Below, in pieces: positions 235 to 38,997 of a stretch of 64,000 nt of DNA. Below the pieces are notes generated by a model. That model was given only the letters and a program-made list of their open reading frames with translations. It was not told the DNA's origin and searched no databases. Each line of letters begins with the position of its first letter. The first letter of the stretch is position 1. A program made the position numbers and the translations under genes. The DNA comes from Patescibacteria group bacterium. Its GTDB lineage: Bacteria > Bacteroidota > Ignavibacteria > Kapaibacteriales > Kapaibacteriaceae. The stretch lies in assembly GCA_044238605.1 (NCBI GenBank), contig JBIICY010000001.1, positions 9,433 through 73,432 of the forward strand, given 5' to 3'.

Positions 235-1473
235 TCATAGTGTACCACCACGATAATACTCTTTATACCACGCCACAAATCTCTGCAATCCTGTGCGCAG
301 ATCTGTCTGTGGACGAAACTTTGTGAGCTCAAACAACTCTTCGCAGTCGGCCCATGTTGTTGCTACATCCCCCGGCTGCATGTCAACATACTCCTTGATC
401 GCTGGCATCCCAAGCTCTTGCTCGAGGATCTCCACGAAATCGAGCAGGCTTACAGGAGCCCCGTTGCCGATGTTATACGTAGGGGCGAGCCGGTGGCTCG
501 CCCGCATGGCGTCATCAGCATGTGCCCGCATGGCGTCATCAGCATGTGCCCGCATGGCATCATCATCATGTGCCCGCATGGCGTCATCAGCATGTGCCCG
601 GATGGCATCATCGTCATGTGCCCGGATAGCGTCATCAGCATGCGCCCGGATGGCGTCATCAGCATGCGCCCGGATGGCGTCATCACATGCCCGCGCGGCG
701 CCGTCACATGCCCCGTCACGGGCGAGCCACCGGCTCGCCCTTACCTGATCGTCGTGCGTGTCTACTGCCCCGACAAGGCGCACGATGCTCTCGACGATGT
801 CGTCGATGTACGTGAAGTCGCGGCTTAGGTTGCCATGGTTGTAGATGTTGATGGGCTCTCGGGCAAGGATCTTCTCGGCAAAGGAGAAGTAGGCCATGTC
901 GGGACGTCCCCACGGACCATACACGGTAAAGAAGCGGAGTCCGGTGCACGGGATCTGGTAGAGATGGTTGTAGCAATAGGCCATCAGCTCGTTGCTGCGC
1001 TTGGTTACCGCATACAAACTCACGGGCTGGTCTACTCTGTCGGTTGTGCGAAATGGAACATCCGTATTGGCCCCATACACGCTACTGCTACTAGCATAGA
1101 ACAAGTGACGGGGCTTGTGTCGCCTACAGGCTTCCAGAATATTCAAAAACCCAACGATGTTCGATGAGATGTAGGCATCGGGGTTCTCAATGCTATACCG
1201 CACACCAGCTTGCGCAGCAAGATGACACACCAACTCGGGCTTGTGAGTTTCGAAGATGGATGCGATAAGCCCCTTATCCTCGATATCACCCAGATAGAAC
1301 GTAACAGACGTCCCAAGCTGGGCAAGACGTGCATGCTTTAAGGAGGGGTCGTAGTAGTCGTTGCAGTTATCGATGCCGACAACATTCCAGCCGTCTTCCA
1401 CCAGACGTTTTGCTACGTGATACCCTATGAATCCGGCAATCCCCGTAACGAGAATTGTACGTGTATCGTGCAT
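235..1473 (-). CDS. NAD-dependent nucleotide-sugar epimerase/dehydratase (UDP-glucuronate 4-epimerase-like), carrying an in-frame ~80 aa repeat insertion
   Basis: N-terminus TILVTGIAGFIGYHV (Rossmann GxxGxxG), YASSSSVYG...YAVTK active-site region and C-terminal YNIGNGAPVSLLDFV are typical of WbpP/Cap1J-type epimerases. I trimmed the start to MHDTRTILVTG because the ORF-track N-terminal extension runs into the repeat region. Residues AVDTHDDQVRASRWLARDGACDGAARACDDAIRAHADDAIRAHADD... are encoded by the 24-bp tandem repeat at 482-740. Confidence 0.8.
   Translation of the reverse strand: MHDTRTILVTGIAGFIGYHVAKRLVEDGWNVVGIDNCNDYYDPSLKHARLAQLGTSVTFYLGDIEDKGLIASIFETHKPELVCHLAAQAGVRYSIENPDAYISSNIVGFLNILEACRRHKPRHLFYASSSSVYGANTDVPFRTTDRVDQPVSLYAVTKRSNELMAYCYNHLYQIPCTGLRFFTVYGPWGRPDMAYFSFAEKILAREPINIYNHGNLSRDFTYIDDIVESIVRLVGAVDTHDDQVRASRWLARDGACDGAARACDDAIRAHADDAIRAHADDAIRAHDDDAIRAHADDAMRAHDDDAMRAHADDAMRAHADDAMRASHRLAPTYNIGNGAPVSLLDFVEILEQELGMPAIKEYVDMQPGDVATTWADCEELFELTKFRPQTDLRTGLQRFVAWYKEYYRGGTL
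482..740. repeat. 24-bp tandem repeat (~9 copies, catggcgtcatcagcatgtgcccg-like) bounded by two 21-bp palindromes gggcgagcc(g/a)(g/c)cggctcgccc, lying in-frame inside the epimerase CDS
   Basis: Direct reading of the sequence; the unit length of 24 is 8 codons, so frame is preserved. The same palindrome family appears as a terminator-like hairpin at 33633-33653. Confidence 0.85.
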
Positions 1474-1515
1474 AGATATTCCCCCGTGGCAAAGATAACA
1501 GGGGCACCAATACAG

Positions 1516-1872
1516 GGGCACGATATATCGTGCCCGCAGGGTACACATGGGTACGGGGGTACGCGTAGGGGCGACCCAGCGTGGTCGCCCAATGAAGCGT
1601 AGGGGCGACCCAGCGTGGTCGCCCAATGTCGCCCAATGAAATGGTGGGGAAACAATGTCGCCCTCGCGGTAGCGAGGGCATATGCATCATGCGCGAGCTT
1701 CCTCGGCACTACGTGCCTCGGAATGACGCACGCCTTCGCTTTTTTCAATAGGCGCAAGCGCGCCTGCGGCGCGCTTGCGCCACAACACCAACCTAATGCA
1801 TGCCGCGTCATTCCGAGCGCAGCGAGGAACCCAATGCACGCTGCGTCATTCCGAGCGCAGCGAGGAACCTCG
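1516..1872. repeat. Composite palindromic repeat scaffold: a gggcacgatatatcgtgccc palindrome, then A hairpins (cgtaggggcgacccagcgtggtcgcccaatgaa x2), a B element (~100 bp, contains ccctcgcg.tagcgaggg and ggcactacgtgcc hairpins), a C hairpin (ggcgcaagcgcgcc tgc ggcgcgcttgcgcc, 14-bp perfect stem) and D 39-bp tandem repeats (cgtcattccgagcgcagcgaggaacc...) x2
   Basis: Inverted repeats are visible directly. The same A-B-(C)-D architecture recurs at 2658-2978, 3774-4276, 5057-5565, 10588-10793 and 11578-11895. Confidence 0.85.
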
Positions 1873-2160
1873 CTACTCAACTACGTCCGTGTTTACCCAA
1901 GAAAGTAGTTCAGCATTCGAGAGCGCTGCGATGCGTGCCATTAGGCTAAGGGGTGGGTCAGCGCAGAAGTGGATGAGATCATCGAGTTCTTCTTCCGTAA
2001 TGCCCACAAGCTTCGCAAACTCGGGTTGTGAAATCTTGCGCTCTTCCATGATCTGACAGAGGCGTCGAGAGAGGGAGAATTGCCAACGATGATATGTGCG
2101 AGTTTCAGCAGGAATGTGCTCAACCTTTTCCTTGATGTTCAGCATATCTATGCCCTCCAC
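1873..2160 (-). CDS. XRE-family helix-turn-helix protein, putative HigA-like antitoxin
   Basis: RRLCQIMEERKISQPEFAKLVGITEEELDDLIH is a classic HTH_3 motif. It is 93-95 aa, overlaps the upstream partner gene by 13 nt, and has paralogs at 4277-4558 and 10794-11066. Confidence 0.6.
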   Translation of the reverse strand: MEGIDMLNIKEKVEHIPAETRTYHRWQFSLSRRLCQIMEERKISQPEFAKLVGITEEELDDLIHFCADPPLSLMARIAALSNAELLSWVNTDVVE

Positions 2161-2657
2161 AATGAAAGATCAAAAGAATCATGGTAACGGGCCATTAACT
2201 CCGAACCTACAATCATAATCTCACCGGTATCGATTCTAGAGTTGAGAACATGAGTTATACGTCCAAGAAACCCTGCTTCGTTATTTGCATCGCTGTTTGC
2301 CTGGATTGCCTCGTTTTTCGACTTGACGAAACCAGATCCAATCAGCAGTATCCTATTGCTAGTGCCCGCGTACGAACATAGCAATCTACTGGGATTGTAA
2401 CGAGTACGCACACGTTCCTTGTGGTTGTACATAGCAAACACACCTAACTCTGGTCTTTCGGGCCGCAGATATGCTTGCCGGATAACCGATTCCTGTGATA
2501 ACCATTCCAGGAAATCCATTAAGGCATCCGCATTGTTGGCGTCTGACTGATAGAGCTGCTCCATGAACTTATCCGCAAGACAAATGCCGTTGCGCTCAAT
2601 GGCATAGAACGAACAGCTTCCCTCCAACCATGGAATGGTTCGAATTGACTCCGGCAT
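2148..2657 (-). CDS. Gp49/DUF891-type RelE/HigB-like toxin homolog with N- and C-terminal extensions
   Basis: The core LRPERPELGVFAMYNHKE...RLLCSYAGTSNRILLIGSGFVKSKNEAIQ fits the Gp49-family pattern (LKELR...R.LY....R.IVLLHGFiKK.qk.p..EI). It lies upstream of the HTH partner, as in HigB-HigA modules. Paralogs are at 4562-5056 and 11083-11577. Confidence 0.5.
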   Translation of the reverse strand: MPESIRTIPWLEGSCSFYAIERNGICLADKFMEQLYQSDANNADALMDFLEWLSQESVIRQAYLRPERPELGVFAMYNHKERVRTRYNPSRLLCSYAGTSNRILLIGSGFVKSKNEAIQANSDANNEAGFLGRITHVLNSRIDTGEIMIVGSELMARYHDSFDLSLWRA

Positions 2658-2978
2658 AGAGAACCCCGCAATGCGTGTTTTGATGCGCGAAGGAGGTTAG
2701 CCCCCTTCTGGTTCTCTGTGCCGTGAATGCCTGTGAACGTGACATGCGTATGGACGACCCAGCGTGGTCGCCCAATAAAATGATGGCGTAACAACGTCAC
2801 CCTCGCGAACGAGGGTCATATGCACCATCCGCGAGCTTCCTCGGCACTACCTGCCTCGGAATGACGCACGCCGCGTCATTCCGAGCGAAGCGAGGAACCT
2901 CGCTGTTCTTGATGTCACGTTTTGAGATCCTGACGGCACGTAGGGGTGTGAAAGCTCATTTTCCGGCAGGAGTTTAAT
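2658..2978. repeat. Composite repeat: conserved ~95-bp spacer upstream of the Gp49-like gene, then an A-like hairpin, a B element, one D unit and a conserved 40-bp leader (atgtcacgttttgagatcctgacggcacgtaggggtg) that abuts the KilA-N start
   Basis: Near-identical to 5057-5565 and 11578-11700. The leader is shared with the region upstream of the zeta-like gene (5527-5565). Confidence 0.8.
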
Positions 2979-3773
2979 ATGTCCAAGCGAATTGAAGTCC
3001 TCAACGTAGGTATTCGAGTTACACCCATTGGAGACAAAGAATACATCTGCTTGACGGACATCGGCAGATATCGAAATCCTGCAGCAAGCGATGATCTAAT
3101 ACGTAACTGGATTCGTAATAGGAACACACTGGAGTTTCTTGGGCTGTGGGAGTTGATCTACAACCCAGAGTTTAAATCCGTCGAATTCGACGGGATTAAA
3201 ATGCAGGCGGGCTTAAACAGTTTTTCACTAACCCCAAAGCAATGGATTGATCAGACATCAGCTATTGGAATTCAGTCAAGAGCTGGACGATATGGCGGAA
3301 CGTATGCGCATCCAGACATAGCGTTCGAGTTTGCAGCATGGATCTCCGTAGAGTTCAAGCTCTACCTCATCAAAGAATTTCAACGTCTCAAAGAGTCGGA
3401 ACGACGCGAAACGGACTGGGATATACGTCGGAACTTAGCCAAAATCAATTACCGCATTCACACCGATGCAATTCAACATAATCTTCTACCTGTCCAGTTA
3501 ACTGCAAGTAGTTCGGGTCGTGTCTTTTCCTCAGAGGCCGACCTTCTAAATCTTGCTCTATTTGGCCGAACTGCATCCGAATGGAGAAGCTCTCACCCCA
3601 ATGAACATGGCAACATACGCGACCATGCAACAGGTGCTCAGCTCGTTTGTTTGTCGAACCTAGAAAACCTTAATGCGTTATTCATTCAGCAGGGCATATC
3701 TCAAACAGAGCGGCTGCAGCGCTTAAATGAAATAGCAATTGCCCAGATGAAGATTCTAACCAGCGACCGGTAA
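2979..3773 (+). CDS. KilA-N domain-containing protein
   Basis: The N-terminal EVLNVGIRVTPIGDKEYICLTDIGRYRN...DLIRNWIRNRNTLEFLGLWELIYNPEFKSVEF matches the KilA-N (APSES-like) domain family common in phage and Bacteroidota accessory DNA. Confidence 0.7.
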   Translation: MSKRIEVLNVGIRVTPIGDKEYICLTDIGRYRNPAASDDLIRNWIRNRNTLEFLGLWELIYNPEFKSVEFDGIKMQAGLNSFSLTPKQWIDQTSAIGIQSRAGRYGGTYAHPDIAFEFAAWISVEFKLYLIKEFQRLKESERRETDWDIRRNLAKINYRIHTDAIQHNLLPVQLTASSSGRVFSSEADLLNLALFGRTASEWRSSHPNEHGNIRDHATGAQLVCLSNLENLNALFIQQGISQTERLQRLNEIAIAQMKILTSDR

Positions 3774-4276
3774 AATCAGCAATCCCGTAGGGGCGACCCT
3801 ACGTGGTCGCCCAATGAAATGGTGTTCGTAGAGCCGACCCTGCGTGGTCGCCCAATGAAATGGTGTTCGTAGAGCCGACCCTACGTGGTCGCCCAATGAA
3901 ATGGTGTTCGTAGAGCCGACCCTGCGTGGTCGCCCAATGAAGTATTGGGGTGTGTGGTCGCCCAATAAAATGATGGCGTAACAACGTCACCCTCGCGAAC
4001 GAGGGGCATATGCACCATCCGCGAGCTTCCTCGGCACTACGTGCCTCGGAATGACGCACGCCTTCGCTTTTTTCAATAGGCGCAAGCGCGCCTGCGGCGC
4101 GCTTGCGCCACCACACCAAACATTGCACGCCGCGTCATTCCGAGCGCAGCGAGGAACCTAAATGCATGCCGCGTCATTCCGAGCAAAGCGAGGAACCTAA
4201 TGCATGCCGCGTCATTCCGAGCGCAGCGAGGAACCCAATGCACGCCGCGTCATTCCGAGCAAAGCGAGGAACTGCG
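3774..4276. repeat. Composite repeat: A-type hairpin units x4 (~41-bp tandem, gtagagccgaccct(a/g)cgtggtcgcccaatgaaatggtgttc), then B, a C hairpin and D 39-bp units x4
   Basis: Direct reading. It shows the same order of elements as 1556-1872. Confidence 0.85.
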
Positions 4277-4558
4277 CTACTCAACTAGGTCCGTGTTTAT
4301 CCAAGAAAGTAGCTCAGCATTCGAGAACGCTGCAATGCGTGCCATTAGGCTAAGGGGCGGGTCGGCGCAGAAGTGGATGAGATCGTCGAGTTCTTGTTCG
4401 GTAATACCCACCAGCTTTGCAAACTCGGGTTGTGAAATCTTGCGCTCTTCCATGATCTGACAGAGGCGTCGAGAGAGGGAGAATTGCCATTCAAAGAACT
4501 TATTCTCTTCTGCTGGCAACTGGCCAACGACATTTACTGCAGAGCTCATAGTGTTCAT
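4277..4558 (-). CDS. XRE-family HTH protein, putative antitoxin (paralog of 1873-2160)
   Basis: About 85% identical to the 1873-2160 product over the HTH core (FEWQFSLSRRLCQIMEERKISQPEFAKLVGITEQELDDLIH). Confidence 0.6.
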   Translation of the reverse strand: MNTMSSAVNVVGQLPAEENKFFEWQFSLSRRLCQIMEERKISQPEFAKLVGITEQELDDLIHFCADPPLSLMARIAAFSNAELLSWINTDLVE

Positions 4559-4561
4559 TCC

Positions 4562-5056
4562 TCAGAAATCAAATGAATCGTTAGATAAAGGCACTAACTC
4601 CGAGCCGATCACGAGTATCTCACCACATTCTATTCGTTGTCCAACCTTTCGCGCAATATCATAAAGAAACTCTGCTTCACGATTAGCTAACCCATTTCTT
4701 TGTATCGGCTGATCCGTTAACTTGATAAAGCCCGACCCCAGAAGGAGCAATCTGTTACTTTGCCCCACATAGCTACACAGCAACCTGCTTCTGTTGTAGG
4801 GCTCTGCTACTAGCTCCTTGTGATTGTACATTGCAAACACACCGAGCTCCGGACGCTCTGGTCGCAGATATACTTGCCTAACGTGTGTTTCGTTGGATAT
4901 CATTTCAAGAAATGCACGGAGTCTCTTTGCAGCAAAGGGATCTTCAACGTCGAGTTCTTCTAGGAACGCATCTGCCAAGCAGACTCCATCACGCTCGATA
5001 GCATAGAACGAACAGCTTCCCTCCAACCATGGAATGATTCGAATTGACTCCGGCAT
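4562..5056 (-). CDS. Gp49/RelE-HigB-like toxin homolog, extended (paralog of 2148-2657)
   Basis: MPESIRIIPWLEGSCSFYAIERDGVCLAD...RLLCSYVGQSNRLLLLGSGFIKLTDQPIQ is a paralog of the 2148-2657 product. It shares the conserved C-terminal RIECGEILVIGSEL...DSF tail. Confidence 0.5.
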   Translation of the reverse strand: MPESIRIIPWLEGSCSFYAIERDGVCLADAFLEELDVEDPFAAKRLRAFLEMISNETHVRQVYLRPERPELGVFAMYNHKELVAEPYNRSRLLCSYVGQSNRLLLLGSGFIKLTDQPIQRNGLANREAEFLYDIARKVGQRIECGEILVIGSELVPLSNDSFDF

Positions 5057-5565
5057 AGAGAACCTCGCACTGCGTGTTTTGATGCGCGAAGGAGGTTAGC
5101 CCCCTTCTGGTTCTCTGTGCCGTGAATTGGTTTGAACGTGACATGCGTAGGGGCGACCCTACATGGTCGCCCTTTGAAATGGTGGGGAAACAACGTCACC
5201 CTCGCGAACGAGGGTCATATGCACCATCCGCGAGCTTCCTCGGCACTACGTGCCTCGGAATGACGCATGCCTTGTCATTCCGAGCGAAGCGAGGAACCCA
5301 ACGCACGCCTCGTCATTCCGAGCGCAGCGAGGAACCCAATGCACGCCACGTCATTCCGAGCGCAGCGAGGAACCTAATTGCATGCCGCGCCATTCCGAGC
5401 GCAGCGAGGAACCTAATTGCACGCCACGTCATTCCGAGCGCAGCGAGGAACCTAATTGCACGCCACGTCATTCCGAGCGCAGCGAGGAACCTAATTGCAC
5501 GCCACGTCATTCCGAGCAAGGCGAGGAACCCATGTCACGTTTTGATATCCTGACGGCACGTAGGG
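5057..5565. repeat. Composite repeat: spacer, A, B, then D 39-bp tandem units x7 and the shared 40-bp leader
   Basis: Seven near-identical 39-bp units (cgtcattccgagcgcagcgaggaacctaattgcacgcca). The leader atgtcacgttttgatatcctgacggcacgtaggggtg immediately precedes the zeta-like start. Confidence 0.85.
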
Positions 5566-6102
5566 GTGATGGATACACCCTACATTATCGTTATCGCCGG
5601 ACCCAACGGAGTTGGGAAGTCAACGTTTGCGAAGTGGTACCTTCGGCAGCGACCTGCTTGCAAAATGATCGTAGATCCCGATGCAATTGCTAAAGAGCTG
5701 AATATCCCTGATGAGGCTCAGCGCAACATTGCTGCAGGACGCATTGCCCTGGAAACGATCGATGCCAACATCCGCAATGGGATATCGTTTGCGATAGAAT
5801 CAACGCTCTCTGGTAAGACGCTGGCTGCAAAACTCGAACAAGCGCACAACGCGGGGTACTCAATCGAGATATGCCTGCTTCAGATTCCCTCTGTAGAGAT
5901 ATCTACCCAGCGCGTTGTTGAGCGTGTAAATGCTGGCGGACACAACATTCCGGCTGACGCACAGCTACGCCGATTTGAAAGATCTTATCGTAATTTTCAC
6001 GACATATACATCGAGGTATGCCATGAGTGGAGTATCTATGACGCAGACACCAACCCTCCAGAACTCAAGAGCACAGGCCGTGGTGGATTCTCTACGCAAT
6101 GA
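5566..6102 (+). CDS. Zeta-toxin-like P-loop kinase / AAA-ATPase (COG4185-like)
   Basis: The Walker A motif YIIVIAGPNGVGKSTF, followed by ...IVDPDAIAKEL... and a length of ~178 aa, is typical of zeta-toxin/UDP-GlcNAc-kinase-like proteins. Confidence 0.65.
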   Translation: MMDTPYIIVIAGPNGVGKSTFAKWYLRQRPACKMIVDPDAIAKELNIPDEAQRNIAAGRIALETIDANIRNGISFAIESTLSGKTLAAKLEQAHNAGYSIEICLLQIPSVEISTQRVVERVNAGGHNIPADAQLRRFERSYRNFHDIYIEVCHEWSIYDADTNPPELKSTGRGGFSTQ

Positions 6103-10587: not shown

Positions 10588-10680
10588 GTCATACCCTACA
10601 TTATCGTTATGGCTTGGCCCAACGTAGATGGGAAGTCCACGTATGTGAGGTGGTACCTGCAGAGGCACCTGATGCACGCT
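10588..10680 (+). pseudogene. Degenerate remnant of the zeta-like kinase 5' end (leader plus first ~25 codons), followed by D-type 39-bp repeats (10670-10790)
   Basis: gtcataccctacattatcgttatggcttggcccaacgtagatgggaagtccacgtatgtgaggtggtacct aligns with 5566-5640 (ggatacaccctacattatcgttatcgccggacccaacggagttgggaagtcaacgtttgcgaagtggtacct) but has lost the P-loop. Confidence 0.45.
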
Positions 10681-10793
10681 GCGTCATTCCGAGCGTAGCG
10701 AGGAACCCAATGCACGCCGCGTCATTCCGAGCGTAGCGAGGAACCCAATGCACGCCGCGTCATTCCGAGCGTAGCGAGGGACCTCGCTGTTCG

Positions 10794-11577: not shown

Positions 11578-11913
11578 AGAGAACCTCGCACTGCGTGTGT
11601 TGATGCGCGATGAAGGGTAGCCCCCTTCACGTTCTCTGTGTCGTGAATTGGTTTGAACGTGACATGCGTAGGGGCGACACTGCGTGGTCGCCAAACAAAG
11701 TATTGGGGTGTGTGGTCGCCCGATAAAATGGTGGCGTGACAATGTCACCCTCGCGAACGAGGGGCAGATGCACCATCCGCGAGCTTCCTCGGCACTACGT
11801 GCCTCGGAATGACGCACGCCGCGTCATTCCGAGCAAAGCGAGGAACCCAATGCACGCCGCGTCATTCCGAGCAAAGCGAGGAACCTCGCTACTCGCTACT
11901 CGCTACTCGCTGC
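11578..11913. repeat. Composite repeat: conserved spacer, degenerate A, B, D 39-bp units x2, then a 9-mer microsatellite (cgctactcg x4) that overlaps the stop of the DUF2520 gene
   Basis: Direct reading. The 9-mer family recurs at 33728-33752, 34213-34245 and 38795-38830. Confidence 0.8.
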
Positions 11914-12801
11914 TCTCTTAATCACTTCCTTCAGCGCATTCGTCAGATGAATGTACTGCTCGCGCAGGTTTTCGGGCATGGCGTCGAGCTGACGTTGCAC
12001 GGCGTCCATGTCTCCGCGGACGAGTGGACCTGTGAGCGCAAAGGGGGTGCCATCGTGCATGGCTTTGGCGGCGTTGTCCAGCGTGCGCTGCATGATGGGC
12101 ACGAGAAACGTCTCCGCTGGTATGCCAGCCTCATTTGCCAAACCACGCGCTAGATCATACGCCGCATAGGTAAAGTTCGATGCAGCTACTGCAGCTGCAT
12201 GATACCGCCGCTTCGACACTGGATCTGTCTTCGGCAACCGGAACGGGAAGCCCCCTGTGAGCTTGACAAACTCTTCGGTAAGGGGCCACGCATCATCATC
12301 ACACTCCACGCCCCAGCCTATGCCGTTAAGCGCCGATGGGTCTACAGAACCAAATGTCTGGAATGGGTGCGCCGCCGCAATCCTCGCCCCACATGCACGA
12401 AGGGGCTCCAAGATGTCCGTACCGAGCGAGCCGTTCACATGCATCACGAGTGATCCTGCAAGGCGCTCTCCATACTGCTCCGCCAATCGCTGGATAACTG
12501 CCGGAAGAAAGGCGTCTTTGCAGGCGAGGAGGAAGATGGATGACGAGGGACTAGGGACTAGGGACGAGGGACTAGGTACTAGGGACGAGGTACTGGGTAC
12601 TAGAGACGAGGTACCTGATACGACAGCTCTTGTTCCGTGTAGAAACTCTCTCGCAGATAGGGTTTCCACATTCAACGTCATCTGGTCCCCAGTCCCTAGT
12701 CCCTCGTCCCTAGTACCTAGTCCCTCGTACCTAGTACCTAGTACCTTCCCAACCGACTCCCCCACTCTTCCTTTTCCGATAATCGTAACATGCGTTATCA
12801 T
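11896..12801 (-). CDS. Rossmann-fold NAD(P)-binding / DUF2520-type oxidoreductase-like protein, with an in-frame ~70-aa insertion of a palindromic repeat element
   Basis: I set the start at MITHVTIIGKGRVGESVGKV (GxGxxG). The C-terminal PFALTGPLVRGDMDAVQRQLDAMPENLREQYIHL is DUF2520-like. Residues LGTRYEGLGTRDEGLGTGDQ...SGTSSLVPSTSSLVPSPSSLVPSPSS are encoded by the 9-mer-armed element at 12538-12748. The C-terminal AASSE-stop is encoded by the cgctactcg microsatellite. Confidence 0.55.
   Translation of the reverse strand: MITHVTIIGKGRVGESVGKVLGTRYEGLGTRDEGLGTGDQMTLNVETLSAREFLHGTRAVVSGTSSLVPSTSSLVPSPSSLVPSPSSSIFLLACKDAFLPAVIQRLAEQYGERLAGSLVMHVNGSLGTDILEPLRACGARIAAAHPFQTFGSVDPSALNGIGWGVECDDDAWPLTEEFVKLTGGFPFRLPKTDPVSKRRYHAAAVAASNFTYAAYDLARGLANEAGIPAETFLVPIMQRTLDNAAKAMHDGTPFALTGPLVRGDMDAVQRQLDAMPENLREQYIHLTNALKEVIKRAASSE
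12538..12748. repeat. MITE-like palindromic element: arms built from 9-bp units (gggactagg/gacgaggga on one side, inverted cctagtccc/gtacctagt on the other) around a ~75-bp unique core; inserted in-frame inside the DUF2520 CDS
   Basis: The arms at 12541-12612 and 12687-12746 are reverse complements made of 9-mers. Related copies are at 14485-14554, 15255-15392 and 29016-29078. Confidence 0.8.
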
Positions 12802-12809
12802 CACGTTCC

Positions 12810-14267
12810 TTAGGAAAGGGGCTCGAGGGTGTAGCTGTCTTTGCCGTCCTTCATTATCCACCCGAGGGATGTGAGCTCGTTGCGGAGTCTGTCTGCCTCT
12901 GACCAGTTCTTGGAGCTGCGCGCAGCCCAGCGCTCTTCGGCCAGGTCGCGGATGTTGTCGGGTACGTCTACAGATGGACGTTCCGTAAAGCTCCACACGG
13001 CAAGCACGTTGTTGATTGCGCGGAGGCGCAGAAGTACTTCTAGCGCCTGCACTGGATTGCTCTTCGCATCGGCATTGCTCGAGAGATACTCGTACATGCG
13101 AGCAAGCGCCTGTGGCACGTTGAGGTCATCAGCAAATGCTTCGGCAACTGACGTCGGCATCGGCGCAGCATCATCTGCGCTCGGCACACCTGCAACGTCG
13201 ATAAGATCCCAAATGGTGTTTTGTACTCGCCCCCTAGTAACAGAAGCGGCACGCAGGCTGTCGAAGGTAAAATTCAGTACTGTTCGGTAATGCGCCATCA
13301 TGAGCGCCAGACGAATATCCAATGGGTCGTGTCCGCGCCCAAGCAGGTCGCGAAGAGTGAAGAAGTTGCCAAGCGATTTTGACATCTTCTTGCCTTCCAC
13401 TTCCAAGAACTCGTTGTGCATCCAGAACCTGGCCTGCTCATGCACGTGATACCCTGCGCAGCACTGCGCTAGTTCATCTTCGTGGTGTGGGAAGCGGAGG
13501 TCTACGCCGCCTGTGTGGATATCAAAGGGCAAGCCAAGAAGCTCCTTCGACATCGCAGAACATTCAATGTGCCAGCCCGGACGTCCCGGGATGCTCTCTC
13601 CGTTGAGTTCGAAGTCCCAATATGGCTCGTCATCCTTACGCGCTTTCCACAATACGAAGTCGCTCACGGATTCCCGATCGTATTCATCAGCATCGATACG
13701 AACGCCCTCACGGAAGTTCTCCGTATCGATCGCAAAGAGACGTCCGTAGGAATTCTTGGATGAGTACGATGCAACGTTGAAGTACACCGATCCTTCCGAC
13801 ACATACCCATAGCCGGCATTCACGATCTCACGCGTGAGATCCTGCATCTGCCCGATGTAGTCCGTTGCCCGCGGCATATGGGCAAAGTGCGACATCTCAA
13901 TTCCCAGCGAGACAAGGTCTGCTCGAAACTCTCTGTCAAAGAATTCGGTATACGCGCGAAGATTCGCGCGCACGTCATCCGACTGCTCTCCCATCGCACT
14001 GCGCCATCTGGCAGAGCCCACAGCACTGTCGCGAATGGTCTTGTCATCAACATCGGTAATGTTCATCACCCAGCGGACAGGGTAGCCCCCTACCTCGCGC
14101 ACCACACGCTGCAACAGATCCGTAAACACAAAGGCACGCATGTTCCCAAGATGGGCCACATCGTACACGGTCGGACCACACGAGTAGATGCGCACCGCCG
14201 CTGGGTCAAGGGGCGTAAAGGGTTCGACAGATTTTGTGAGGGTGTTGTAGAAGGAAAGCATTGTCAA
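12810..14267 (-). CDS. cysS: Cysteine--tRNA ligase
   Basis: CGPTVYDVAHLGNMRAFVFTDLL (HIGH-type motif) and KKMSKSLGNFFTLRDLL (KMSKS); 485 aa. Confidence 0.9.
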   Translation of the reverse strand: MTMLSFYNTLTKSVEPFTPLDPAAVRIYSCGPTVYDVAHLGNMRAFVFTDLLQRVVREVGGYPVRWVMNITDVDDKTIRDSAVGSARWRSAMGEQSDDVRANLRAYTEFFDREFRADLVSLGIEMSHFAHMPRATDYIGQMQDLTREIVNAGYGYVSEGSVYFNVASYSSKNSYGRLFAIDTENFREGVRIDADEYDRESVSDFVLWKARKDDEPYWDFELNGESIPGRPGWHIECSAMSKELLGLPFDIHTGGVDLRFPHHEDELAQCCAGYHVHEQARFWMHNEFLEVEGKKMSKSLGNFFTLRDLLGRGHDPLDIRLALMMAHYRTVLNFTFDSLRAASVTRGRVQNTIWDLIDVAGVPSADDAAPMPTSVAEAFADDLNVPQALARMYEYLSSNADAKSNPVQALEVLLRLRAINNVLAVWSFTERPSVDVPDNIRDLAEERWAARSSKNWSEADRLRNELTSLGWIMKDGKDSYTLEPLS

Positions 14268-14484: not shown

Positions 14485-14554
14485 TGGGACTCAGAAGACG
14501 AGGACTAATCTGCTGTACCCCTGTGTACCTAGTACCTTGTACCTTGTACCTAGG
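14485..14554. repeat. Small copy of the 9-mer-armed palindromic element immediately 3' of hutI
   Basis: gggactcagaagacgaggactaa...gtacctagtaccttgtaccttgtacctagg. Confidence 0.6.
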
Positions 14555-14556
14555 CC

Positions 14557-15891
14557 TCAAGCTACCCACACCCTCTCCACATGGTTTACACCATAGTGGT
14601 ACACAATGTCCTTGTACGAAGGCACATCGTAGAGTACAACGTCTGCTCGTTTACCAACTTCGAGGGAGCCACATGTGGCTGATATGCCAAGTGCAGCCGC
14701 ACCGTTGATGGTGGATGCAACAATGGCTTCTTCGATGCTCATACGCATGTTCATGCAGGCAAGCGACATGATCGTTGGCATGCTCTCGCTGTAGCTCGAC
14801 CCCGGATTGCAATCTGTGGCAAGGGCAACGACAGCCCCTTCGGCGATCATCGTGCGCGCATCCGGATATGGCAGACGAAGCGTGTAAGCAGTGCCTGGAA
14901 GCAGCGTGCATACAACTCCTGCATCACGCAGAATGCGTATCTCGTCGATTGTACTGTGCTCCAGGTGATCGGCGCTGATACACCCAAGCTCCGCAGCCAT
15001 CTGCGAGGCTCCGATGAGCGCAATTTCATCCGCATGAACCTTGAGCTTGAGCCCAAGCTCCTTGGCTTTCTTCAGTATTCGCGTAGACTGCTCAACAGTA
15101 AAGAACCCTGCATCTGTGAACACATCACAGAATTCAGCAATCCCCTGCTCTGCAACAGCGGGTAACATCTCATTGATAACGATGTTTACGTATGCCTCGG
15201 GATCATGCTTCCACTCAGGGGGCACGGCGTGAGCACCGAGGAAGGTGATGAAGACACTAGGTACTAGGGACGAGGGACTAGGTACTAGGGACGAGGAACG
15301 AGGGACTAGGGACGAGGGACTAGGTACCGGGGACGAGGGACTAGGGACGAGGGACGGAGACTGCTGTACCTTGTACCTAGTACCTTGTACCTTCTTCGTC
15401 GCTTCCAACATCTTCAGCTCGCTCTCTGTATCCAACCCATAGCCGCTCTTGATCTCCACCGTCGTGGTGCCATGAGCCAGCGCAGATTGAACGAGCTTGC
15501 GTCCGTTTGCTGCGAGCTGCTCGAGCGTTGCCTCGCGCACGGCGCGCATGGTTGTGAGGATGCCACCGCCTTCTGCGGCGATCTCTGCGTACGTTGCGCC
15601 TGCGACACGACGCGCGAATTCATGTGCGCGAGAGCCGGCAAACACCATGTGCGTGTGAGAGTCGACAAATCCGGGCAGAACAGTTTTGCCTGTGCATTCG
15701 ATGACCGTTACATCTGTATGATCAAGGTGCTTGGCGTCTTCTGTTGTGCCTATCCATTCGATCACATCGCTAAAGAGGATAGCCCCTTGATTGATCTCTC
15801 CTACTTCGCGCATGGCTTCGCCAGTAATGAAGGGGGCTCCGTTGGCATCAACAGTTACGAGAGAAGAGATGTTGGTAAGGAGTGTCTTCAT
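14557..15891 (-). CDS. hutI: Imidazolonepropionase (amidohydrolase superfamily), with an in-frame ~45-aa S/P-rich insertion derived from the 9-mer element
   Basis: KTVLPGFVDSHTHMVFAGSRAHEF and HADEI...TDCNPGSS metal-binding motifs. The segment VQGTRYKVQQSPSLVPSPSSPVPSPSSLVPRSSSLVPSPSSLVPS is encoded by the repeat at 15255-15392. Confidence 0.8.
   Translation of the reverse strand: MKTLLTNISSLVTVDANGAPFITGEAMREVGEINQGAILFSDVIEWIGTTEDAKHLDHTDVTVIECTGKTVLPGFVDSHTHMVFAGSRAHEFARRVAGATYAEIAAEGGGILTTMRAVREATLEQLAANGRKLVQSALAHGTTTVEIKSGYGLDTESELKMLEATKKVQGTRYKVQQSPSLVPSPSSPVPSPSSLVPRSSSLVPSPSSLVPSVFITFLGAHAVPPEWKHDPEAYVNIVINEMLPAVAEQGIAEFCDVFTDAGFFTVEQSTRILKKAKELGLKLKVHADEIALIGASQMAAELGCISADHLEHSTIDEIRILRDAGVVCTLLPGTAYTLRLPYPDARTMIAEGAVVALATDCNPGSSYSESMPTIMSLACMNMRMSIEEAIVASTINGAAALGISATCGSLEVGKRADVVLYDVPSYKDIVYHYGVNHVERVWVA
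15255..15392. repeat. 9-mer-armed palindromic element (ggtactagg/gacgaggga units ... gtaccttgtacctagtacc) inserted in-frame in hutI
   Basis: Direct reading; the length is a multiple of 3 and the ORF is uninterrupted. Confidence 0.8.
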
Positions 15892-27265: not shown

Positions 27266-27741
27266 AGACTCCAGCAAACAGTCAGGTTGTCATGACGGAG
27301 CTTGTGCTCCCGAACGACACGAATTATCTCGGGAACCTGCTTGGCGGACGCCTCATGCATTGGGTGGACATTGCGGCTGCATTATCCGCGATGCGTCATT
27401 CCGGGAAGGTCTGTGTTACAGCTTCCGTAGACCAGATCACATTTGAAGAACCGATCAAGCTGGGTCACGTGGTCCACATCACGTCTATCCTAACGCGTGC
27501 ATTCAAAACGTCCATGGAAGTGTACGTTCAGGTAGAACGCGAAGACCCTCTTAACGGAACTCGCACGCGTACGTCTGAAGCGTACCTCACATTTGTGGCA
27601 ATTGACCAATACGGCAAGCCCCTTCCTGCTCCTGGACTTGTCGCTGAGACAGAGGAAGAAAAACACCGATTTGAAGAAGCGGCAATGCGCCGGGAAATCC
27701 GCCTGCGTGCGCGTGAAGCAATGAAAGCGCGCCGGGGATGA
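27262..27741 (+). CDS. Acyl-CoA thioesterase (hotdog fold, YciA-like)
   Basis: VMTELVLPNDTNYLGNLLGGRLMHWVDIAAA...VTASVDQITFEEPIKLGHVVHI. Confidence 0.7.
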   Translation: MKTPANSQVVMTELVLPNDTNYLGNLLGGRLMHWVDIAAALSAMRHSGKVCVTASVDQITFEEPIKLGHVVHITSILTRAFKTSMEVYVQVEREDPLNGTRTRTSEAYLTFVAIDQYGKPLPAPGLVAETEEEKHRFEEAAMRREIRLRAREAMKARRG

Positions 27742-29015
27742 TTGGCCGGCTGATTGGACTGCTGCTCCTGGTAAGCATGCGCCTTTCAGCGCAGGATGGC
27801 GATGTAGTGCTTCGCTACATACGAAGCTATGGGGCTAATGATGAACGTCTGCCTCCCGTGGTTATTCTGAATTCGACAGAGTCAAATGACGTTGGCTCGG
27901 AGTACGTAACCGTCGAGTTTGATGTCTCTGCGCAGTCAATTCCAAACGTGTATGCGCGTATCACCCACTGCACCGCAGATTGGCAGCCGTCTGACAACGG
28001 CTTTCTCAATGACATCACCAACCGAACAAGTCTTGCCGACTGGGTAATAGCACCGGAGCGCTCAAAGTACTCGCGATATCGTGGCAAGATGGTCTTTCCC
28101 AACCCGCAGACATCTATCCGGTTCTCGGGTAACTGGAAAGTAACATTGTATAGTTTGGATAACGACTCCGTGATCGGCGAGACGAAGTTCTTTGCCGTTG
28201 ATGCCCGGGCGTCAATGAGAATGTCGTTCATGACAGATTTTTATCAGCCCCGTTTTCAGGTATCCTCGATAGCCTACACCATTGAAGCTCGTATCTCAGA
28301 CCGTACGAGCAAACTCCTGAGCACGAACCTTCATACGCTGGCAATGTATAGGAATCACCGTTGGAACGAGCCGTTCTACGCTAGCGAGCGTTTGCTATCG
28401 GCAGGCAACTCCAGTGGCGTTGGCAGCGCTGTTGTTGGCATGGTGCAAAGCGGAAAGGTCTTTCGGTTAGAGCGCATCCCTGCACAAAACGAATACCGCA
28501 TTCTAGATCTCACGGACATGTCGCGCTATCCATTTGTCGGGGCACCCGTACGTATGCCTATGTCGGACATGCGAAGAAACGGGACATTTTTCGAGCGCGC
28601 TGATGACGGCGCGATGACCTCCATGGGTATTGTCGGAGCCAATGATGAATTCGTACCTATCGAGATCCTTCTCGACCCCAACCCCGGAGGGCTGAGCAGA
28701 GAGGATGTGTTTGTGGCCGGATCATTCAACAACTGGAAGCCGGACAAGACCTGGATGATGTGGTACGACGAATCCATGAATCTCTACCGCCTGCGCCAAT
28801 GGATGCGCAGAGGACGTCACAACTACCTCTATGCCACGGGGCGTCTCAACGCCGATACAGACCAGATCATGGATCTGAGCTACGAAGAATTCGAGGGCAA
28901 CACCGCATCTGCAAACAACTCTTTCATCGGCTTTGCCTACTACCGCGAACTCGACTACGGCGGCTACGACGGCATCGTTGCAGTGGGCGCTAGCACGATG
29001 TATTTGGGAAGATGA
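27738..29015 (+). CDS. Hypothetical secreted protein (425 aa)
   Basis: N-terminal signal peptide; no motif recognised by eye. A family conserved near ruvB in Bacteroidota-like genomes is possible but unverified. Confidence 0.45.
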
Positions 29016-29078
29016 GGGAACAGGGACTAGGGACTAGGGACCAGGGACTAGGGACGGTACCTAGTACCTTGTACCTAG
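29016..29078. repeat. Intergenic copy of the 9-mer-armed palindromic element (gggactagg x4 ... ggtacctagtaccttgtacctag)
   Basis: Direct reading. It lies upstream of ruvB, and the ORF-track N-terminal extension of ruvB reads through it. Confidence 0.75.
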
Positions 29079-29101
29079 CAAACTCTACATACTTTTGCCA
29101 C

Positions 29102-30127
29102 ATGACTCGCAAGCACCCACAAGTAGATCCCCACAAGATGGACGACGATGTTGACGCATCACTTCGCCCCCTATCATTTGATGATTTTACGGGGCAGCCG
29201 AAGATCGTGGAGAACCTAAAGATCTTTATTGCTGCTGCTAAGGGGCGCGGCGAGGCATTGGATCATGTCTTATTGACCGGGCCGCCGGGGCTTGGCAAGA
29301 CAACGCTATCGCACATCATAGCGCGTGAGATGGGTGCTCAAATCAAGATTACGTCGGGTCCGGTGCTTGAGAAGCCTGGAGACTTGGCTGGACTTCTGAC
29401 AAGTCTTGACGAAAACGACATCCTCTTTATCGACGAGATCCATCGGTTGTCTCCAGTAGTTGAAGAGTACTTGTACTCGGCCATGGAGGACTTCCGACTC
29501 GACATCATGATCGACTCGGGTCCGGCAGCACGCTCCGTGCAGCTTGCCATCCCACGCTTTACGCTTGTTGGTGCAACAACGCGACAAGGCTTACTGACTG
29601 CCCCATTGCGCTCGCGCTTTGGTATTACCAATCGCCTTGACTACTACGATGCAGAAGAGCTCGCACGCGTGATAACACGCAGCGCCCACCTGCTGGGGGC
29701 TGAGATCGACCCGCAAGGGGCTCATGAACTTGCACGCCGTGCACGAGGCACCCCACGCATTGCGAACAGACTTCTGCGTCGCACTCGTGACTTTGCAGAC
29801 GTTAAGGGTACGGGTGTTATCACCCGAGACATCGCGCGCATTGCCCTCGAAGCTCTCGAGGTTGACGAGTTTGGTCTCGACGAAATGGACACGCGCGTAA
29901 TCCTTGCACTGATCGAGAAGTTCGGTGGTGGACCTGTTGGCATCTCTACGCTCGCTGTTGCCGTTGGTGAGGATTCCGGAACGCTCGAAGAAGTCTACGA
30001 GCCGTTTCTGATTCAGCAGGGATTTCTGCAGAGAACACCACGTGGACGCATTGCCACACCCCTTGCATACAGGCACATGGGTCTGCAGCCACCGAAACCA
30101 GATGCTCCCCTGTTCGATCCTGCGTAA
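29102..30127 (+). CDS. ruvB: Holliday junction branch migration helicase RuvB
   Basis: [18 protein letters not shown]...[18 protein letters not shown] (Walker A), DEIHRL (Walker B). I set the start at MTRKHPQ, downstream of the repeat element; an alternative start is MDDDVD at 29138. Confidence 0.9.
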
Positions 30128-37670: not shown

Positions 37671-38809
37671 TGTACGGAATCTACCTTCATATACCGTTCT
37701 GCGAAAAGAAGTGCTCCTATTGCGACTTCTACAGCATCGAATCGATGACGCACATCGATCGGTTCACTGATACGCTCCTGCAAGAGATTGATCTTCGTAA
37801 ACATCAGTACGATGGCACAGCTATTACATCCGTCTTTTTTGGAGGGGGCACCCCTTCGCTACTTTCTCCAGAGGCCATTGCACGGATCAATACAGCGGTG
37901 CGCAATGTAGCGCAGGTTGCAGATGATGCCGAGTGGACGATGGAATGCAATCCTGGAACCGTCACGCTTGAACGCCTTCAAGCATACCGTGCCGCCGGCA
38001 TCAATCGCCTTTCCTTCGGTGTGCAGTCGTTCACCGCCTCAGAGCTTGAATTCCTCGACCGCATACACGATGCCAAGCAGGCGGAACAGGCAATGCAGCT
38101 TGCCAGAGAAGCCGGCTTTGCAAATGTGAACATGGACCTCATGTTTGCAGTACCGGGCCAGACACTGGAGTCATTGGCACATAACCTCGAGCGCATGATC
38201 GCGCTATCCCCAGATCACATTAGCGCCTACTCTCTGATCTACGAGCAAGGCACTCCGCTCTATACGAAGTTGAAAAAGGGGCTCGTACAGCCCCTTGCTG
38301 AAGAGGTCGATGTTGAGATGTACAAGCTCGTGATCGACACACTACGTGGGGCAGGATATCACCAGTACGAAGTGAGTAACTTTGCCAAGCCAGGCAAGGA
38401 ATGCAGACATAATCTCACGTATTGGCATGCAGAGAATTACCTGGCCTTTGGTCCGAGCGCCCACGGCTATATTGGCAACACGCGCTACTGGAACAAACGC
38501 TCGCTCACGGCGTGGATGCAAGATGTTTCGAACGACACTCTGCCCGAGGCCAATCGAGAAGAGCTTTCTAAAGACGACCTGTTATCGGAATTCCTCTTCC
38601 TTCATCTGCGTGCAGATGGCATCCCACTTGACGCTGTCCAGCAGCGATTCGACATCGATCTCCGCACACTACTACAGCCCAATCTCCGCTATTGGATCGA
38701 AGAGGGCTTCATCGAAGACACAGGCACCATGCTGCGCCTAACAGCCGAGGGGTATAGGGTGTGCGATGAGATAACGGTGAAGGTGTTAGAAGCAGCGAGC
38801 AGCGAGTAG
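37670..38809 (+). CDS. hemW: Radical SAM heme chaperone HemW / oxygen-independent coproporphyrinogen-III oxidase-like protein
   Basis: YLHIPFCEKKCSYCDFYS (CxxxCxxC); start ATG overlaps the lepB2 stop. The C-terminal AASSE-stop is encoded by the microsatellite. Confidence 0.8.
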   Translation: MYGIYLHIPFCEKKCSYCDFYSIESMTHIDRFTDTLLQEIDLRKHQYDGTAITSVFFGGGTPSLLSPEAIARINTAVRNVAQVADDAEWTMECNPGTVTLERLQAYRAAGINRLSFGVQSFTASELEFLDRIHDAKQAEQAMQLAREAGFANVNMDLMFAVPGQTLESLAHNLERMIALSPDHISAYSLIYEQGTPLYTKLKKGLVQPLAEEVDVEMYKLVIDTLRGAGYHQYEVSNFAKPGKECRHNLTYWHAENYLAFGPSAHGYIGNTRYWNKRSLTAWMQDVSNDTLPEANREELSKDDLLSEFLFLHLRADGIPLDAVQQRFDIDLRTLLQPNLRYWIEEGFIEDTGTMLRLTAEGYRVCDEITVKVLEAASSE

Positions 38810-38997
38810 CGAGCAGCGAATTACTCAATTACTCAATTACTCAATTACTCAGTTACTCAATTACTCAATTACAGAGTTACGGACTCGCTGTTCGCTGTTC
38901 GCTGTTCGCTACTCGCTGTTCGCCGCTCGCTGTTCGCTGTTCGCTACTCGCTGTTCGCTGTTCGCTGTTCGCTGCTCGCTGTTCGCTGCTCGCTGCT
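38810..38997. repeat. Pure microsatellite hairpin filling the whole hemW/lolE convergent intergenic region: gcgagcagcgagtagcgagcagcga + (attactcaa x7) + inverted (tcgctgttcgc-type 9-mers x ~12)
   Basis: Direct reading. The left arm is the reverse complement of the right arm, and the hemW stop codon lies within the repeat. Confidence 0.85.

Follow-up and report, generated by a model that had tools for sequence, protein, structure and literature searches.

In a 64,000-nucleotide stretch of contig JBIICY010000001.1 (hereafter 'the window', meaning the whole stretch analysed), two housekeeping genes, hutI for imidazolonepropionase and a gene for a DUF2520/Rossmann-like oxidoreductase, carry in-frame inserts composed of inverted arrays of G-rich heptamers. 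The evidence collected here suggests that such arrays are probably tolerated in surface loops of the encoded proteins by way of stop-free third units and of length changes restricted to 21 bp, and that their content is homogenised within each genome. A preceding inspection of the letters (the sequence-only reading) had described the repeats as palindromic elements of the miniature inverted-repeat transposable element (MITE) type, built from 9-bp units and inserted in the manner of Rickettsia palindromic elements (RPEs).

Results

The repeat unit and its placement

The repeats lie where the sequence-only reading had placed them, and they far exceed chance expectation: GGGACTAGG, with at most one mismatch, has 33 matches in the window versus 7.0 ± 2.4 in shuffled sequence, none of 100 shuffles reaching 33, and GACGAGGGA has 38 matches versus 12.3 ± 3.4. 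Apart from two isolated ones, the GGGACTAGG matches are confined to 12542-12746, 14525-14553, 15256-15393 and 29015-29078. The unit of this family (family 1) is not 9 but 7 bp long (GGGACTA, GGGACGA, GGTACTA), with a super-period of 21 bp according to Tandem Repeats Finder (TRF), and the proposed '9-mers' turn out to be overlapping reads of neighbouring heptamers. Period-7 arrays of 3–14 copies were identified by TRF at 12542-12611, 12685-12746, 14525-14553, 15256-15355, 15365-15393, 29022-29055 and 29057-29078, and the 21-mer TCGTCCCTAGTACCTAGTCCC is common to the hutI and DUF2520 arrays.

At each family-1 locus of the window, a G-rich arm is followed by its reverse-complement C-rich arm, forming a convergent pair. 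The identical relative orientation in the two genes, to which attention had been drawn, is thus correct but automatic, because this order of arms reads alike on either strand. The copies measure 63, 70, 138 and 65+78 bp (overall span 63 to ~210 bp) and possess no unique-sequence core. In the compact hairpins (15256-15393, 14485-14554 and 29016-29078) one arm is of the GGGAC type and its partner of the GGTAC type, which arm carries which type being dependent on the locus, and each 7 bp of paired arm contains a single mismatch (G.A on one strand, C.T on the other); the palindromic tetramers GTAC and CTAG are packed in the units of these hairpins, and GGTACC stands at the arm junctions. Canonical G-quadruplex (G4) motifs, (G3N1-7)x4, number only four in the 64 kb, all of them within heptamer arrays. 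They are supplied by GGGAC units, which provide one G3 tract each, whereas many units are of the GGTAC type instead. An Rfam scan of the window returned no family at gathering score.

Reading frame and removal of stop codons

Since 7 is coprime with 3, a tandem heptamer visits all three phases in each 21 bp, and the same peptide is therefore obtained from all three frames. As CTAG is also palindromic, unmodified (GGGACTA)n has TAG in every frame on both strands, so that the earlier proposal of two open frames out of three is wrong. The coding arrays stay open by means of a non-TAG variant at each third unit, precisely where TAG would otherwise fall in frame, the in-frame triplet being GAG or AAG in the G-rich orientation and TCG or TTG in the C-rich orientation, and it is this regular stop-free unit that gives rise to the 21-bp super-period. 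A single variant, GGGACGA, serves both arms because CGAG in place of CTAG abolishes TAG on either strand. When units of the window and of two relatives (L121 and L124, see below) were sorted by phase, in-frame TAG was found in none of 25 units and out-of-frame TAG in 42 of 48. Both open reading frames (ORFs) run uninterrupted across the repeats, with conserved sequence beyond them, which bears out the GTR(Y/D)EGLGT-type and SLVPSPS-type peptides expected from the sequence-only reading. An idealised (GLGTRDE)5(SSLVPSP)5 query retrieved only 16 short unannotated ORFs, probably owing to the effect of the composition filter and the word index.

Host genes and predicted location of the inserts

The two hosts had been correctly recognised as a Rossmann protein and an imidazolonepropionase: Pfam identifies a DUF2520/Rossmann-like protein and an amidohydrolase, the latter matching solved imidazolonepropionases (Table 1). 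JGI assigns the name imidazolonepropionase to a protein identical to the HutI of the window, and DUF2520 homologs at 57–63% identity bear the name Candidatus Kapabacteria in their sources, these names being the basis on which the host is taken to be probably Kapabacteria-like.

Read in gene sense, the hutI insert comprises a short arm (AGGTACW)x4 at 15365-15393, a loop GCAGTCTCC, and a long arm (GTCCCTN)x14 at 15256-15356. The addition of ~45 aa that had been claimed for this protein is accurate as to the repeat-coded codons, of which there are 45, but the net gain is smaller: query residues 170-212 stand for six residues of B. subtilis HutI, and the protein is longer by ~37 aa than the latter and by 33–38 aa than orthologs of 406–411 aa. 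In the AlphaFold2 model of HutI (mean predicted local distance difference test score, pLDDT, 88.9), residues 179-206 score below 50 and connect helix 155-168 with strand 212-220, which ends at His221, a residue invariant in the alignment. Because the active site of amidohydrolase barrels is located at the C-terminal ends of the strands, the insert is predicted to enter at the opposite, non-catalytic face, in a helix-to-strand surface loop.

The DUF2520 gene differs from what had been described as one insert of ~70 aa at 12538-12748, in that it contains two separate arms (12682-12746 and 12538-12615) around 66 nt of native sequence. The segment M41-S62 is native and not repeat-derived because (i) its V..SAREF consensus is kept in DUF2520 orthologs bearing other repeats (alignment with 28 orthologs), and (ii) insert-free orthologs of 271 aa align through this stretch, albeit with divergent sequence. 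Relative to the latter, the net gain is ~30 aa (301 vs 271). The AlphaFold2 model (mean pLDDT 83.8) assigns values below 50 to residues 28-39 and 64-84, and the native centre, with strand 44-48 and helix 50-55, is modelled confidently (10-residue block means of 87 and 80). The two arms are hence predicted to occupy the loops flanking the second Rossmann strand. Mapping onto predicted structures, which had been suggested as a check, thus places the inserts of both proteins in surface loops that are disordered in the models, the two models being of low confidence in the repeats only.

The two remaining family-1 copies had both been regarded as intergenic. This is correct for 14485-14554, which is non-coding; the array at 29016-29078, however, is open in the ruvB frame and may not be purely intergenic. 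It is contained in an ORF (29012-30127) in which RuvB_N is matched from residue 51 and whose ATG at 29012 overlaps the stop codon of the upstream gene (ATGA), the next in-frame ATG being located at 29102. Its in-frame units carry CAG, CAG and TTG, and TAG is kept in the out-of-frame units. RuvB may thus possess a repeat-coded N-terminal extension. As to coding status, the hutI insert and both DUF2520 arms are coding, the copy 5' of ruvB is open, and one copy is clearly non-coding, which is a small sample.

Table 1. Repeat arrays, host genes and related features, with the basis of each assignment
Feature	Position	Strand	Basis and description
DUF2520/Rossmann-like oxidoreductase, 301 aa	11896..12801	-	Pfam PF10728 (E=5.6e-25), PF10727; starts MITHVTIIGKGRVG
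DUF2520 arm A, V20-Q40, VLGTRYEGLGTRDEGLGTGDQ	12682..12746	-	TRF period 7/21, codon layout; G-rich in gene sense (GGTACTA/GGGACGA/GGGACTA)
Native DUF2520 segment, M41-S62	12616..12681	-	Between the arms, 66 nt; conserved beta-strand and short helix NVETLSAREFL
DUF2520 arm B, G63-S88, GTSSLVPSTSSLVPSPSSLVPSPSSS	12538..12615	-	TRF, codons; reverse-complement heptamers (TCGTCCC/TAGTACC/TAGTCCC)
cysS, between DUF2520 gene and hutI	12810-14267	-	Match to cysS of syntenic relatives
Non-coding hairpin copy	14485..14554	-	TRF (14525-14553); (AGGTACW)x4, CAGCAG, degenerate C-rich arm; begins 3 nt past the hutI stop codon
hutI (imidazolonepropionase), 444 aa	14557..15891	-	Pfam Amidohydro_1/3; PDB 2bb0 imidazolonepropionase, E=1.5e-95
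hutI in-frame insert, V168-S212	15256..15390	-	TRF, codon layout; encodes VQGTRYKVQQSPSLVPSPSS...LVPS
Array 5' of ruvB	29016..29078	+	(GGGACNA)x5.5, then GGTACCTAGTACCTTGTACCTAG; begins 1 nt past the stop of a type 9 secretion (T9SS) plug-like gene (27738-29015)
Predicted array junction peptides			GLGTRDEGLGTR and SSLVPSPSSLVPSPSS
G4 motifs	12547-12570, 15329-15353, 29006-29032	+	From GGGAC units
G4 motif	12687-12710	-	From GGGAC units
Second heptamer family (TAGCGAG / CTCGCTA; AGCGAGY)	11885..11915	-	TRF; overlaps the last DUF2520 codons (..AASSE) and supplies the TAG stop
Composite palindrome, second heptamer family	38791..38995		TRF; (AGCAGCG)x4, (AATTACTC)x7 octamer loop, (TCGCTGT)x16
In-frame arrays in other phyla (LeuRS, Lhr, aminotransferase, LptF/G, LarC, GidA)	L108, L083, L041, L092, L022, L031, L152		Loci of the scans beyond the lineage

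Length variation among alleles

Length polymorphism of the inserts follows the 21-bp super-period. Among hutI alleles of at least 93% identity, proteins of 444, 437 and 430 aa occur with inserts of 45, 38 and 31 aa, respectively, the gaps comprising exactly 7 aa within the array. The DUF2520 alleles that share family-1 repeats are 301, 294 and 287 aa long, a 7-aa unit being missing from arm A in P0258, from arm B in P0003 and P0004, and from both arms in P0005 and P0259. All length differences inside the repeat tracts of the listed alleles, whose lengths were taken from protein databases that under-sample frameshifted alleles, are whole multiples of 7 aa (21 bp), which supports slippage filtered by selection for the reading frame and disfavours a phase-variation switch. 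DNA-level inspection of two short gene calls that might have been frameshift alleles, P0014 and P0143, traced them to a start called too late (L156) and to the end of a contig (L157), respectively, with intact frames. In L156 (2714-3000) the gene caller began the DUF2520 protein past the arrays (201 aa) despite an uninterrupted full ORF, which exemplifies how gene callers mis-start or split genes bearing such repeats.

Conserved sites and changing heptamers in related organisms

Syntenic contigs of five related organisms were compared, together with the empty-site outgroup L155 and the near relative L154. The boundaries of the hutI insert are the same in the window, L121, L123 and L125, that is, after KMLEA(T/M)KK and before the (P)H-x-H/VFI-TFLGAH strand; the array of L124 starts earlier, directly after KML. 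The insert is absent from hutI orthologs at 67% identity or less. The heptamers at these sites depend on the genome: the window and L121 have GGKACTA/GGGACGA, L124 has GGTACTA, and L123 and L125 have GGATTAC/GGAGTAC, predicted to be translated into ITDYGLR and VTSNQSS peptides. In each genome, the intergenic arrays use the heptamers of its own coding arrays. Between L124 and L125, the heptamers differ at four orthologous places, namely the hutI loop, both DUF2520 loops and the rpe-aldo/keto-reductase spacer, and in this spacer the flanks align and the arrays begin at the same point. L124 also has an array at the position orthologous to 14485-14554, which overlaps its hutI stop codon.

The second heptamer family, located at the DUF2520 stop, is unchanged in four of five genomes compared (window, L121, L123, L125), so that the switch of the family-1 heptamer is specific to that family and not simply a matter of time. 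The C-terminal tail of DUF2520 itself varies between orthologs (ASSE, VPNIV, QL). That different heptamers at orthologous sites each match their own genome points to an inter-locus homogenising process, and, judging from these alignments, we read the pattern as probable old occupancy of permissive sites with concerted turnover between loci. Unrelated repeats are found in the same loops as well, namely a GGGGCGAGCCACCGGCTCGCCC hairpin in the hutI gene of L154 and a GTCATTCCCGCGAAAGTGGGAATC element nested in the DUF2520 gene of L124, and the sites are therefore also insertion hotspots or selective sinks. More distant DUF2520 proteins have GSQHAATL and RHSRERGNPSS peptides in these loops.

Hypermutability of the arrays was considered and is not seen between the window and L121. 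An assembly artefact was likewise discarded, since the sites recur in independent assemblies from ENA, JGI and Logan. The neighbouring hutI-cysS spacer is variable, containing a PemK/MazE toxin-antitoxin pair in L121, L125 and L155, a Por_Secre_tail gene in L124 and L154, and only the repeat hairpin in the window.

(GGGACTA)n arrays in other phyla

Scanning for GGGACTAGGGACNAGGGAC in one genome per species yielded at least 120 loci (L001-L120), and the array figures given in the following apply among the matches listed. The loci are from Acidobacteriota (many from Terracidiphilus), Nostoc and other cyanobacteria, Gemmatimonadota, Planctomycetota, Anaerolineae, Gammaproteobacteria and others. 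For 63 of the 112 arrays with enough upstream sequence (56%), a same-strand ORF of at least 100 aa ends at most 60 nt upstream, compared with 10.6% for random positions from the same loci. An inverted partner was found downstream in 14 cases and upstream in none, the order always being G-arm then C-arm. The arrays are often mixed with GGGATTA, GGGAACA, GGGGCTA or GGGAATA units.

ORFs with at least 60 aa on both sides span nine of 121 arrays (~7%). According to Pfam, these encode a LeuRS editing domain, Lhr helicase (several sites), a class I/II aminotransferase of Nostoc (both arms), LptF/G and LarC, and a separate metagenome scan with a stop-free 24-mer located arrays in frame in a GidA domain, a linker of a GT4 glycosyltransferase and a TPR protein. 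In-frame residence is thus a general minority fate of the (GGGACTA)n repeat class. In L147 (about 5800-5830), the array constitutes the linker in a single ORF that joins TP_methylase (tetrapyrrole methylase) and CbiA/CobQ domains; this ORF is a possible product of gene fusion, in which an array close to a stop codon came to be read through.

Other repeats and genes of the window

Otherwise the window consists of ordinary chromosome, and the ORFs scanned include Era, a YfiO-family lipoprotein, RuvB, ProRS, LepA, signal peptidases, PPK, LigA and BshC. A repeat of a different family lies within a third housekeeping gene, for an NAD-dependent epimerase/dehydratase (ORF 235-1626, minus strand), where a 24-bp unit is present nine times in frame at 500-713, encoding (DDAIRAHA)n, bracketed by GGGCGAGCC..GGCTCGCCC hairpins (RASRWLAR / RASHRLAP); L124 and L125 have heptamer-coded or other repeat peptides (..AARCSLLA..) at this site. 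The composite palindrome of the second heptamer family at 38791-38995 occupies precisely the space that separates the stop codons of two convergent genes, one HemN-like and one FtsX-like (Pfam). Dense tandem repeats of 34–41 bp with GTCATTCCGAGCGCAGCGAGGAACC-type units and GGGGCGACC..GGTCGCCC hairpins occupy 1563-5530 and 10672-10783; the tract surrounds a lone KilA-N-domain ORF (2979-3773), and units of this type appear as the peptides RHSEQSEEP and GSQHAATL in spurious or real ORFs of the window and of relatives.

Discussion

We consider it probable that the inserts of HutI and DUF2520 represent heptamer arrays which are tolerated rather than required. The arrays are heptanucleotide simple-sequence repeats of the G-rich GGGNNNN class, arranged in convergent pairs that are hairpin-capable and, in their GGGAC arms, G4-capable, and their usual site is directly past stop codons. 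Residence within a gene would then depend on three filters: (i) the arrays would have to lie in surface loops, here the helix-to-strand loop of HutI and the two loops of DUF2520; (ii) every third unit would have to be stop-free (CTAG to CGAG), so as to be read as (GLGTRDE)n or (SSLVPSP)n depending on orientation; and (iii) any surviving change in length would comprise three units (21 bp, 7 aa). The product would be a disordered loop of 20–45 aa having no required function. Growth and shrinkage would occur by replication slippage, presumably in 21-bp steps from a small stop-free seed, and the content would be homogenised between the loci of one genome, possibly by gene conversion or re-seeding, resulting in a genome-specific heptamer 'dialect' at conserved sites. 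We infer, furthermore, that the repeat peptide is translated and neutral, and that a first seed entered each of the loops.

Several observations weigh against this account or at least narrow it. Between the window and L121, the hutI arrays diverge by 8.1% and the rest of the gene by 8.3%, and the corresponding values for DUF2520 are 3.5% and 8.2%; such values, with arrays no more diverged than their gene, are better explained by constraint or conversion than by neutrality alone. In part, the phase test presupposes open ORFs, and the window and L121 do not count as independent samples. Among the family-1 arrays of the window, three of about five are coding, compared with 7–11% in Xanthomonas, an excess that tolerance alone does not explain. 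The account does not explain how convergent arms came to lie around the native DUF2520 segment. Finally, GGGACGA units are present also in intergenic arrays of other phyla, and the stop-free unit may thus have been selected from standing variation rather than newly mutated.

The mechanism implied by the sequence-only reading, in which a discrete palindromic mobile element, an RPE-like MITE, transposed whole and in frame into hutI and the DUF2520 gene, appears unlikely to us. It would account for dispersed copies with inverted arms, for the compact arm-loop-arm unit in hutI and for GGTACAGCAG, which is common to the loops of the hutI insert and of the copy just after hutI, and the different small hairpin repeats in the same loops of relatives (GTCATTCCCGCGAAAGTGGGAATC, GGGGCGAGCCACCGGCTCGCCC) imply real insertion events. 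The copies lack, however, both a unique-sequence core and a fixed length; their 'arms' are the tandem arrays themselves and not defined terminal inverted repeats; and their length varies by 21-bp slippage steps. Inspection, as opposed to a statistical test, revealed no target-site duplication at the flanks of the three compact copies, and the 32 window ORFs scanned by Pfam contain no transposase domain. Moreover, an unmodified element would bring stop codons in every frame, and related species have different heptamers at the same sites. In the DUF2520 gene, insertion of a MITE in a single piece is ruled out by the native centre. The comparison with RPEs hence stands for the outcome, i.e., in-frame repeats in unrelated housekeeping genes and in predicted disordered surface loops, and not for the MITE/RPE mechanism.

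We would also not expect the arrays to be functional nucleic-acid elements, in which a G4 or hairpin is selected as a 3'-end mRNA stabiliser, terminator-like barrier or translation brake and in which the in-ORF copies tune hutI and DUF2520. This explanation can draw on the location of all four canonical G4 motifs within arrays, on the placement past stop codons and the 14:0 convergent polarity among the listed arrays, and on array divergence that does not exceed that of the remaining gene. The two DUF2520 arms, furthermore, pair over ~80 nt as RNA (-140.8 kcal/mol, z = -9.2), and related heptamers form G4 in vitro (Rehm et al. 2015, PMC4692102). Yet the hutI insert of the window has unequal arms and pairs only weakly (z = -1.8), and across five relatives the hairpin potential at this site ranges widely (z = -0.4, -1.1, -2.3, -5.5 and -6.4) and is not consistently conserved, so that selection on a coding hutI hairpin was dropped as a candidate. 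Half of the units are GGTAC and not GGG, no T-run follows the hairpins, and arrays are replaced by unrelated repeats, or missing, in relatives. The published work on related heptamers (PMC4692102) found no regulatory role.

It is tempting to speculate, even if the odds are rather poor, that the arrays are written or overwritten by an active genome-specific process, either templated addition of G-strand repeats with fold-back copying or a dedicated conversion system. If true, this would account jointly for the strict sequence of G-arm and then C-arm and for the simultaneous switch of dialect at all orthologous sites with the second family unchanged. It would cover, in addition, the repeated use of the same protein loops and the occurrence of GGGACTA arrays in Acidobacteriota, Cyanobacteria, Planctomycetota and the lineage of the window, some of them in frame in essential genes such as those for LeuRS and GidA.

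A phase-variation switch, in which gain or loss of a single 7-bp unit would shift the frame into the TAG codons of the array and turn the gene reversibly off, is very improbable. The unit length is not a multiple of three, TAG is present in the other frames, and heptanucleotide contingency repeats exist in other bacteria; but the repeat tracts of the listed alleles differ only by multiples of 7 aa, what look like truncations are explained by a contig end and a late start call, and the genes are metabolic and do not encode surface antigens. Even less credible are low-complexity linkers that evolved for the benefit of the protein and whose likeness to the intergenic repeats is fortuitous. Linker loops rich in S/P or in G/T/R/D/E are indeed common, and the inserts are conserved in frame, yet a single DNA unit, read on its two strands, yields both peptides, and relatives switch the peptide (to ITDYGLR/VTSNQSS) together with their intergenic heptamers. 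Units of the inserts are shared with the non-coding copy at 14485-14554 and with the array at 29016-29078, in agreement with the view of the sequence-only reading that the segments are DNA repeats and not protein linkers. Occurrence of the segments in distant orthologs lacking intergenic copies would have spoken for convergent linkers; the comparison was made, and the distant orthologs are without inserts. Translational bypass (ribosomes hopping hairpin inserts, as in T4 gene 60 and the mitochondrial byps) or excision from mRNA or protein can practically be dismissed: the inserts are hairpin-forming and lie in coding sequence, but frame, stop avoidance and 21-bp-only indels are kept though bypass would not need them, the DUF2520 loop holds a native strand that is needed, and no Rfam match was obtained. 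Introns, inteins and bypass, as well as convergent protein linkers, were considered and rejected.

If the heptamer arrays are indeed tolerated as proposed, it follows that non-triplet microsatellites, which are assumed either to be kept out of bacterial coding sequence or to serve there as frameshift switches, can be read through in conserved enzymes. One palindrome-breaking substitution per third unit (CTAG to CGAG) would suffice to generate a codon-compatible super-unit of 21 bp that expands and contracts, which would provide a testable route from selfish or structural DNA repeats to intrinsically disordered protein loops. The homogenising process to which the dialects point bears, in turn, on the nature and spread of heptamer repeats of the STRR type.

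Comparison with known repeat systems

Among known heptamer repeats, the GGGGA(C/T)T unit of Nostoc is what we take to be the classical STRR1 repeat. This unit and GGGAATC of Xanthomonas are G-rich heptameric repeats for which Rehm et al. (2015, PMC4692102) give an intergenic location of 89–93%, a mean distance to the upstream ORF of 28 nt, 70–75 convergent inverted pairs per genome, G4 formation in vitro, length variation between strains, and no known function. The arrays described here share the 7-bp tandem units with a G-tract, which is a G3 tract in the GGGAC but not in the many GGTAC units (2 to >14 copies), the placement past stop codons, with 14485-14554 beginning 3 nt and 29016 beginning 1 nt past a stop, the convergent pairs, the strain length variation and, in the GGGAC units, a putatively G4-capable sequence. 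They differ in the unit (GGGACTA/GGTACTA), in the host, which is probably Kapabacteria-like, and in that most copies in the window are inside ORFs, the non-coding bias of the class not being seen in this small sample of family-1 copies. Judged by its sequence features, the family is better filed as a variant within the G-rich heptamer repeat class than as MITE or RPE. The consulted portions of that article make no mention of phase-locked stop-free units, of a 21-bp super-period or of dialects that are specific to a genome at orthologous sites, nor did those of the literature on heptamer repeats, RPEs and Borg repeats describe that both arms of a pair are translated in conserved domains or that arms flank a native strand.

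Three further systems invite comparison. In one orientation, the TAACTGA heptamers known from Beggiatoaceae, Cyanobacteria and Bacteroidetes contain a stop in each frame (MacGregor 2015, PMC4679880). They resemble the repeats of the window in that the second heptamer family likewise overlaps a stop codon and supplies it (DUF2520 end), in their occasional in-ORF copies and in their patchy phylogenetic distribution. They are located, however, mainly upstream of start codons and are direct repeats rather than inverted pairs, and their in-ORF cases mostly concern protein ends or hypothetical proteins, read in the naturally open orientation (PMC4679880); the arrays of the window are read in both orientations and inside conserved domains. 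In Borg elements, in-ORF tandem repeats are reported to yield perfect amino-acid tandem repeats in disordered regions (Schoelmerich et al. 2023, PMC9879509), and both systems represent fast-evolving in-ORF nucleotide repeats whose products are predicted to be disordered and which have conserved hotspots. Unlike these, the window arrays have a 7-bp primary unit of which only the 21-bp super-unit is codon-compatible, occur in bacterial chromosomal housekeeping genes and form inverted pairs. The likeness to the REP/REPIN system resides in short post-stop repeats, inverted pairs, a long hairpin and many copies per genome. REPs are single imperfect palindromes of 20–40 bp, and not tandem heptamers as in the window, and are mobilised by REP-associated tyrosine transposases (RAYTs, Y1 transposases), none of which was seen among the window ORFs scanned by Pfam.

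It is, finally, the RPEs that come closest in outcome. RPEs are discrete elements of ~150 bp with conserved consensus and peptide, found in Rickettsia (Ogata et al. 2000, as summarised in PMC10969869), and they share with the inserts described here the presence of palindromic repeats in frame in unrelated housekeeping genes, the additional non-coding copies, and extra peptides that are compatible with the fold. The window inserts, in contrast, are variable-length 7-bp tandem arrays that need periodic removal of stops, change length by slippage and are split around native DUF2520 sequence. Being tandem units without a core, they are set apart, by description rather than by alignment, from a discrete RPE consensus of ~100–150 bp. 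With the heptamer arrays of the window and of the other phyla, the RPE paradigm of palindromic repeats accommodated within proteins would reach beyond a single intracellular genus and include free-living bacteria in several phyla.

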